Shown here in pieces: positions 14,667-14,972 of a stretch of DNA of 21,429 nucleotides; position 1 is the first letter of the stretch, and each line of letters starts with the position of its first letter. A program made the position numbers and the translations under genes. The stretch is taken from IMG/VR virus record IMGVR_UViG_3300014059_000004. The stretch is one strand, 5' to 3'. The notes beneath the pieces are model-generated. The model worked only from the letters and a program-made list of their open reading frames with translations, searched no databases and was not told the origin of the DNA. Origin of the DNA: a virus.

Positions 14667-14713
14667 AAGGGGTGGAACGGGCCGCCCCTTAAATTGCCTT
14701 CACGAGGGGGTAA

Positions 14714-14744
14714 GGGGCGGCTGGTTCGAGGCCCCGTATTTTAT
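14714..14744 (+). terminator. Intrinsic-terminator-like hairpin GGGGC-(12 nt)-GCCCC followed by GTATTTTAT
   Basis: GC stem with a U-rich tail on the plus strand. Flanked by further hairpins: AAGGGG/CCCCTT (14667-14690), GGGG-tgg-CCCC (14745-14755) and the palindrome AGAAGGCCTTCT (14778-14789). Confidence 0.5.
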
Positions 14745-14810
14745 GGGGTGGCCCCAGGGGGTCAGGCAACCTTTGTAGAAGGCCTTCTCGGGATGGTCGC
14801 TAAGGCCCCG

Positions 14811-14972
14811 CACACAAAAATTTCACGCGTAAATTTCACGTGCAAGTTGCACGTGAATTCAGCCACAAATTTCACGCGTAAATTTCACAGAGAAACAGAG
14901 CGCAGATGATCGACTTACTCCCACACAAATTTCACGGGACAAATTTCACAGAAAAACAGCCACAAATTTCAC
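14811..14972. repeat. Iteron-like array: 7 direct copies of AAATTTCAC in three ~30-bp composite repeats, plus an inverted copy
   Basis: Copies start at 14818, 14831, 14867, 14880, 14927, 14941 and 14964. The composite unit is CCACAAATTTCACGCGTAAATTTCAC(A/G)G. The last copy overlaps the stop codon of minus-strand gene 14969-15556. Confidence 0.75.
14835..14857. repeat. 23-bp perfect palindrome TTCACGTGCAA-G-TTGCACGTGAA (two CACGTG cores)
   Basis: Reverse-complement check done by hand, 11+1+11; the left arm is iteron copy 2. Confidence 0.8.

Follow-up and report, generated by a model that had tools for sequence, protein, structure and literature searches.

A cluster of seven exact copies of the 9-bp word AAATTTCAC, all in one orientation (positions 14818-14972, plus strand), was found in the non-coding gap between two converging sets of phage genes, and, as judged from the sequence and its conservation, its most likely role is that of a landing pad on the DNA, a multi-copy recognition site for a DNA-binding protein. 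The DNA analysed (the window) comprises the 21,429 nucleotides of IMG/VR record IMGVR_UViG_3300014059_000004, which is part of the 92-kb Logan contig SRR1145916_13777, about 40 kb of which was covered; on this contig, the array spans about 36.04-36.20 kb. Because the word matches the -35 element of a family of early-type promoters in the same phage, yet has no -10 partner, our best guess is that it binds the reader of that element. On this tentative reading, the array could be a docking site or sink for such a reader and could form, together with the adjacent hairpins, a boundary between the converging units.

The seven copies occupy positions 14818-26, 14831-39, 14867-75, 14880-88, 14927-35, 14941-49 and 14964-72 of the plus strand (the word reads GTGAAATTT on the minus strand). 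They are laid out as three pairs, 13, 13 and 14 bp apart, and one single copy, with successive start-to-start spacings of 13, 36, 13, 47, 14 and 23 bp. A first-pass annotation of this DNA had listed seven copies paired 13-14 bp apart, as well as three composite direct repeats with two copies each; exact positions could be assigned to all of the copies, and the composite repeats were recovered at 14815-14839, 14864-14888 and 14924-14948, with lengths of about 25-34 nt. No further exact copy is present elsewhere in the 21.4-kb window. The number of copies observed at one mismatch or fewer was reached by none of 100 dinucleotide shuffles and the repeats are kept in close relatives, which agrees with the earlier view that they did not arise by chance. 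Within about 40 kb, no second cluster of the word was detected at up to two mismatches (the genome may exceed 300 kb), and the only other dense 8-mer clusters in the ~40 kb of the source contig are the tRNA T-loops. The GC content of the array is 40.6%, compared with about 53-58% in its surroundings, so that its description as an AT-rich patch holds; no separate AT-rich tract was found inside it, and the AT content of the tRNA region is higher than that of the array. The array also contains a perfect 23-bp palindrome, TTCACGTGCAA-G-TTGCACGTGAA (11+1+11; 14835-14857). This palindrome had been regarded as an inverted pair of the repeat, but its right arm carries only GTGAA+TT(C) of the 9-mer and is therefore a partial, not a full, inverted copy.

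The same junction array was identified in seven related metagenomic contigs (L019/L020, L024/L026, L025, L118, L119 and L120), with a copy number of 3-7 and every copy in one orientation. Among 36 copies over seven related sequences, the departures from AAATTTCAC amount to only about three independent events. The spacers, on the other hand, vary (GCGT, GTGC, GCGC and GGGAC), the longer gaps measure 23-52 bp, and the spacings in relatives range from 13 to 52 bp overall; one relative, L119, contains a run of identical 13-mers (GTGC-spaced, x4). The left flank in L118 shows 4-5 changes in 12 nt, while its first copy shows none in nine positions, and in every relative the first copy begins 19 nt past GCTAAGG. 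The near-invariance of the 9-mer in the face of drifting spacers, flanks and copy number implies a constraint on the word that goes beyond mere duplication, and the range of 3-7 copies in close relatives suggests that dosage is not critical. The palindrome is found in two of the six lineages only (the window and L118). It had been anticipated that repeats without a function might be absent or degenerate in related genomes, which is not what was observed among close relatives; no comparable array could be found in the more distant relatives that carry ART-like genes (L016-L018 and L021).

Outside this group of relatives, several searches were carried out. The junction gave no megablast or blastn match in 50,697 phage records or 72,556 plasmids, and a scan of IMG/VR for the conserved 45-bp block of the junction (see below) was also without a match. 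Scans for AAATTTCAC-N4-5-AAATTTCAC in IMG/VR and for AAATTTCACGNGNAAATTTCAC in metagenomes returned unrelated contigs only, mostly low-GC gut contigs, and a literature search with the 9-mer retrieved primers and noise only. Two unrelated arrays were recorded on their own account. An unrelated, AT-rich jumbo phage of 333 kb (L002, IMGVR_UViG_3300037419_002734) carries five tandem GTGAAAT(T)T units at 7793-7840, between two convergent ORFs and with the stop codon of the upstream gene inside the first copy; its likeness to the window in both word and layout may be a coincidence or may reflect a recurrent type of element. An unrelated 47.8-kb IMG/VR contig (L008, 1-290) starts with about 21 tandem 14-bp units, ACTTTGTAAATTTC or ...AACCTC, an iteron-like array that shares AAATTTCAC by chance.

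The gap is bordered by genes that converge, as had been proposed in the first-pass annotation. On the plus strand, the last gene (14460-14666) encodes a protein of 68 aa with a CxC...H...C pattern; this gene is missing from the gene calls of the source but is present as a conserved ORF in L025 and L119. On the minus strand, the last gene of an operon of ART-like proteins (14969-15556) has a tentative start between 15556 and 15577, with the longest ORF reaching 15772, and it ends with a TGA within the last repeat copy, where this stop codon reads TCA on the plus strand, in accordance with the overlap reported previously. Four GC-rich hairpins precede the array on the plus strand, including hairpin 1 (14675-14727; 17-nt arms, 88% complementary), hairpin 2 (GCCCCGTA-TTT-TATGGGGT; 14731-14749), hairpin 3 (14750-14763), whose loop varies among relatives and whose stem contains one compensatory AU<->GC pair, and hairpin 4 (14781-14807). 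They fold with a minimum free energy of -78.7 kcal/mol (z = -3.3), which none of 200 shuffles equals. The four hairpins described before are thus real features of this DNA, but the terminator-like tail that had been assigned to one of them is not, since the sequence in question, GTATTTTAT, forms the apex of hairpin 2. A T-run tail is absent from all four hairpins, and a consensus scan of both strands of 14667-14815 found no canonical hairpin-plus-T-run terminator. The sole terminator that the scan predicted in the junction lies inside the array, on the minus strand (14842-14824). The repeats are not required for termination, in line with the previous remark that such an array exceeds what termination needs.

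Hairpin 4 is located inside a conserved 45-bp block, GGCAACCTTTGTAGAAGGCCTTCTCGGGATGGTCGCTAAGGCCCC (14765-14809), which is either identical in relatives or differs by one substitution each (L118 and L119). An exact 11-mer, CTTTGTAGAAG, occurs in this block at 14771-14781 and again at 15058-15068, where it falls in the part of the last ART-like gene that encodes the GGFYKV motif, and a remnant of an ART paralogue may be contained in the block. The surroundings of the array are a recombination hotspot, with an endonuclease gene that only some relatives carry, turnover of ART paralogues and a mosaic relative (L021). The endonuclease is a free-standing GIY-YIG homing endonuclease, whose gene has its insertion point between 14690 and 14712, to the left of hairpin 2, and replaces the left arm of hairpin 1 where it is inserted. 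It is present in three lineages (L020, 3809-4318; L024/L026, L024 1-192; L118, 1472-2158) and absent from the window, L025 and L119. The near-identity of the 45-bp block across relatives may be a result of co-conversion during homing. Besides, two other readings of the junction were considered and rejected. An ORF at 14694-14909 was judged non-coding because of 2- and 5-nt indels among relatives. The reading of GGTTCGAGGCCCC as an attP site or tRNA fragment was dismissed, as inspection showed that T-arm pairing is impossible and no tRNA was called at the junction; no integrase was found within 40 kb either.

The minus-strand side of the junction is formed by five ART-like paralogues, which constitute an inverted 3.5-kb cassette within an otherwise plus-strand region. 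The other four paralogues (15553-18486, minus strand) contain conserved YRG, SSSW and ExE residues. A comparison of 15 sequences showed no variation in the R of YRG, the S of SSSW or E.E, which are candidates for the R-S-E type catalytic triad of the ADP-ribosyltransferase (ART) superfamily. No sequence match to these proteins was found in Pfam, PHROG, NCBIfam or PDB, and tblastn of one of them against phages gave no match. An AlphaFold (AF2) model of an ART-like protein was obtained with a pLDDT of 79.9, and its best fold matches in PDB, namely Tpt1/KptA, pertussis toxin S1, NatT, Rhs ART toxins and Arr, are weak (E ~0.01, TM ~0.3). The model thus makes the label "ART-like" plausible rather than proven, and the enzymes are possibly toxins. 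Each cassette examined (the window, L019, L024, L025 and L028) holds 5-6 paralogues; the two promoter-proximal genes are conserved, and the array-proximal genes vary in number and allele among close relatives. The mosaic L021 is 99.6% identical across half a gene and divergent beyond it. The third ART-like ORF (15975-16769, minus strand) extends about 60 codons beyond the conserved C-terminus and overlaps the next paralogue (15553-16170, minus strand) by 195 nt, and this extension could be due to a lost stop codon or a frameshift; the 205-aa paralogue was missed altogether by the source's gene caller. At the other end of the cassette, an AT-rich palindrome, CCAATATATATATTGG (18487-18520), is located directly upstream of the cassette ATG at 18486, where a plus-strand gene begins back-to-back with the cassette. 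This palindrome may act as a shared bidirectional promoter of a class other than the TATACT family described below.

On the plus-strand side, positions 167-14666 are a run of small genes with one promoter of a single family ahead of each. In total, 26 near-identical plus-strand promoters were detected between -6431 and 14448 in window coordinates, 25 of which are within the window (191-14448) and the 26th about 6.4 kb upstream of it (L029); a 27th, weaker match was observed in the tRNA region beyond the window. Their consensus is aGTGaAa..tc-...-GGTATACT-N6-ATG (also written aGTGaAa..tc.c..ctgaaaGaGGTATACTAgaAtCATGG), and their geometry is GTGNAN-N18-TATACT-N6-ATG. The last member of the family, GTGAAC-N18-TATACT, is found at 14424-14453 on the plus strand. 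The position of the ATG, 6 nt past the -10 element, predicts leaderless mRNAs. A Shine-Dalgarno-like GAAAGAGG is situated upstream of the -10 element, which implies that read-through transcripts would carry a leader with a Shine-Dalgarno sequence. The -10 form GnTAnAnTnG resembles that of actinobacterial promoters, and the promoter consensus was absent from the IMG/VR and GTDB genomes scanned.

The relationship between the repeated word and this promoter family was assessed with a -35 matrix derived from the 26 promoters. On the minus strand, the seven copies obtained scores of 9.2-11.7 bits, which fall within the range of the 26 promoters (5.9-15.0 bits), and they rank 22-92 of 80,146 positions. 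Moreover, the GTGC-spacer units of relatives read GTGCAA on the plus strand, which is the second commonest -35 variant. The resemblance of GTGAAATTT to the -35 element is suggestive rather than conclusive. It rests mainly on GTGAA and one T, the chance of an accidental match is roughly 3% when 13 offsets and two strands are allowed for, and the strictly conserved ATTT of the 9-mer lies outside the promoter consensus. The geometry GTGNAN-N17-19-TAnnnT was not found on either strand in the arrays of six lineages; in the absence of a -10 TAnnnT 17-19 nt downstream, the array copies are not promoters.

A docking array would combine these features in the following way. Between three and seven same-orientation copies of AAATTTCAC would be offered to a sequence-specific DNA-binding protein, in the non-coding gap where about 26 single-gene, leaderless, early-type units come to an end and the inverted ART-like cassette also ends. 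The reader might be the RNA polymerase holoenzyme, acting via sigma region 4, but stable binding of sigma or holoenzyme is not expected without a -10 element, and a phage factor that occupies the -35 position would be the more plausible candidate. The array could then represent a boundary or sink that closes the early block, and together with the four hairpins it may keep the converging units from reading through into each other. We infer the binding event, the kind of protein and the boundary or sink role from this arrangement. None of the neighbouring proteins matched Pfam, PHROG or NCBIfam, and no candidate binding protein was found among them. A more specific version, in which a stack of perfect -35 decoys titrates or parks an early-promoter factor and works as a timer or insulator at the border of the ART-like cassette, appears rather doubtful; to our knowledge, a regulatory decoy array of this kind has not been described in phages. 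The MotA box acts at the -35 position of T4 promoters, and the stoperators of cluster A mycobacteriophages are asymmetric and orientation-dependent. Both are activator or repressor boxes and resemble the array in that their word is asymmetric, 9-13 bp long, fixed in its orientation and akin to a promoter element that recurs many times over the genome. In contrast, MotA boxes and stoperators are dispersed single sites, whereas the array piles up 3-7 perfect copies at a single site that has no promoter, and no MotA-like or repressor gene was identified in the window phage.

Several other explanations of the array have to be weighed, and the placement of the repeats in relatives bears on the question of whether they act as DNA or as RNA. 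The repeats, GUGAAAUUU on the ART strand, might be part of the 3' UTR of the ART operon, where they would be bound or cleaved or would contribute to an unusual terminator, given that the ART transcript meets its stop codon in the first copy, that the repeats precede the hairpins on that strand, that the minus strand of the array includes one predicted hairpin with a T-run, and that the unrelated L002 has its tandem units right past a stop codon at a convergent junction. This reading is nevertheless quite improbable. In L025 a terminator-like hairpin with a T-run on the ART strand, and in L118 a palindrome with 14-bp arms, lie between the ART stop codon and the array, so that the array of these two relatives is flanked by terminator-like sites, is unlikely to be part of the ART mRNA and is better explained as a DNA-level site that transcription does not enter than as a 3' UTR element. 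Furthermore, adjacent copies could pair by A-U only and lose this pairing with GGGAC spacers, and a scan against Rfam 15 produced no family at threshold (best matches of 14-17 bits against gathering thresholds of 34-88). A point against a DNA-level docking array is that, in the window and L020, the ART transcript must cross the array to reach the hairpins. At the DNA level, the array is a further member of the known class of iteron-like repeat arrays, and a replication origin, in which the 9-mers would be iterons for a phage initiator and the AT-richer array would melt to start replication, was among the roles proposed in the first-pass annotation. As in the iteron arrays of lambda ori, P1 oriR and P4 ori/crr (the latter with 8-bp type I iterons), short words in the same orientation are clustered in an AT-richer, non-coding patch (40.6% GC against about 55% around) and the word is conserved while the spacers drift; the cluster is the only one in 40 kb, and the terminator-like structures on its flanks would insulate it. 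Unlike iteron origins, however, the array has a 9-bp core with irregular spacing, and no adjacent initiator gene, DnaA boxes, unwinding element or skew change could be found for it, while its copy number is unstable (3-7) among phages that are nearly identical. The repeats had been called phased, but steps of 13-14 bp followed by 23-47 bp do not follow a helical phase of about 11 or 22 bp. GC skew, which had been suggested as a check, is positive to the left and to the right of the ART cassette and turns negative only within the cassette; it follows the coding strand and shows no switch and no origin- or terminus-type signature at the array. No match to the DnaA-box consensus TTWTNCACA was found in the junction, and the 9-mer itself was rejected as a DnaA box, with 6-7 of 9 positions matching and the essential TT missing. 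A recognisable initiator-type domain was not detected within about 20 kb on either side, the only replication-like Pfam hit over 40 kb being a faint DnaB_C/ATPase about 22 kb away, and the tRNA region is a more AT-rich place than the array. An origin at this site is therefore regarded as unlikely. Still less probable, to the point of being hardly credible, is a centromere-like site (parS or parC type) of a phage-plasmid. The ParR/omega-type centromeres are clusters of short direct repeats, which the single cluster and its inverted element resemble, but no ParA, ParM, ParB or ParR domain was found in 40 kb, the copies are neither contiguous nor evenly spaced, and the genome has the look of a large virulent or jumbo phage, since it encodes a sigma factor and an array of tRNAs and its relatives measure 270-370 kb.

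The position of the array at the end of a gene block raises the possibility of a DNA-handling boundary, such as a terminase site, a terminal-repeat boundary or an injection stop similar to the T5 iss, which would close the early block. The site closes a block of 14.5 kb in which about 25 small genes are served by one strong promoter each, and this block resembles the pre-early or host-takeover gene blocks that are known from T5 and SPO1. The T5 iss region contains 9-mers paired 3 bp apart, nine direct repeats and palindromes, and some T5-like phages carry a homing endonuclease gene within this region (10.1101/866236); here, the 9-mer pairs are 4-5 bp apart and are accompanied by a palindrome and a GIY-YIG insertion polymorphism. 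Like the array, T5 iss/Repeat Region 3 (Davison, bioRxiv 10.1101/866236) is untranslated, closes an early block, is rich in repeats and palindromes and has endonuclease insertions. The array, in contrast, is five times shorter (an element of ~0.3 kb versus 1.2-1.6 kb in T5), its 9-mer does not meet the DnaA-box consensus, and there is no sequence similarity between the two; a terminal repeat and a two-step injection as in T5 are not known for this phage, and the likeness is one of context only. Further examples of short direct repeats at a DNA-processing site are the short-repeat arrays that adjoin the terminal repetition of T7 and the clustered hexamers of P1 pac, seven in number, but the motif is different and no terminase gene is near the array. 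Four assemblies (the window, L025, L118 and L119) continue through the site without a sign of a terminal repeat or physical end, which does not indicate physical DNA ends there, and the contig breaks nearby map to the endonuclease gene or to the 45-bp block shared by the relatives, a pattern that strain heterogeneity predicts. A search for an initiator, ParB-like or terminase gene had been recommended, and no initiator, ParA/ParB/ParR or terminase domain was found in the ~40 kb around the site. A boundary of this type would seem improbable. Moreover, since the palindrome is absent from four of six lineages and the array is missing in distant ART-bearing relatives, the evidence does not support origin, partition or packaging specifically. 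A different kind of explanation dispenses with function altogether and treats the array as a minisatellite in a recombination hotspot, where slippage and unequal recombination would both preserve and rearrange the repeats. The differences in copy number and arrangement between phages that are otherwise 90-99% identical, the identical 13-mer runs of L119, the flank with its endonuclease polymorphism, ART turnover and mosaic L021, and the absence of the array in more distant relatives are all consistent with it. What makes this explanation an unlikely one is that the 9-mer hardly varies whereas changes are seen in the 4-5-nt spacers and the 12-nt left flank, that one word is carried by different spacer types, that the distance between the conserved block and the first copy is constant, and that degenerate copies are few. 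Finally, two further candidates were eliminated: avoidance of, or a decoy for, restriction sites, as the rest of the genome shows no avoidance of AAATTT, CACGTG or GAATTC, and CRISPR-like or anti-CRISPR repeats, as the units are only 13 nt.

The phage that carries the array is probably a member of a large clade of uncultured jumbo phages. No close cultured phage was identified, its sigma and AAA_5 proteins gave distant matches only, and 11 window proteins that were scanned had no significant family match. Beyond the right end of the window (by about 4-7 kb), 12 tRNA genes are located on L023 at 14603-17717, and a sigma-70-family gene is found on the same contig at 19161-19943. More than 1000 homologues of this sigma factor were detected, on contigs of up to 370 kb and with about 65-85% identity among the best 120 listed, which suggests that the genome is probably that of a jumbo phage and that the 40 kb covered here is a minority of it. 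The array is mainly an entry point into this uncharacterised phage clade. As a conserved cis-element, it provides a 155-bp bait for the first sequence-specific DNA-binding protein of the clade. Should it instead prove to mark an origin or a DNA end, it would give the genome map of these phages an orientation. If the link to the -35 element is true, the docking array would show how about 25 leaderless early genes are switched.
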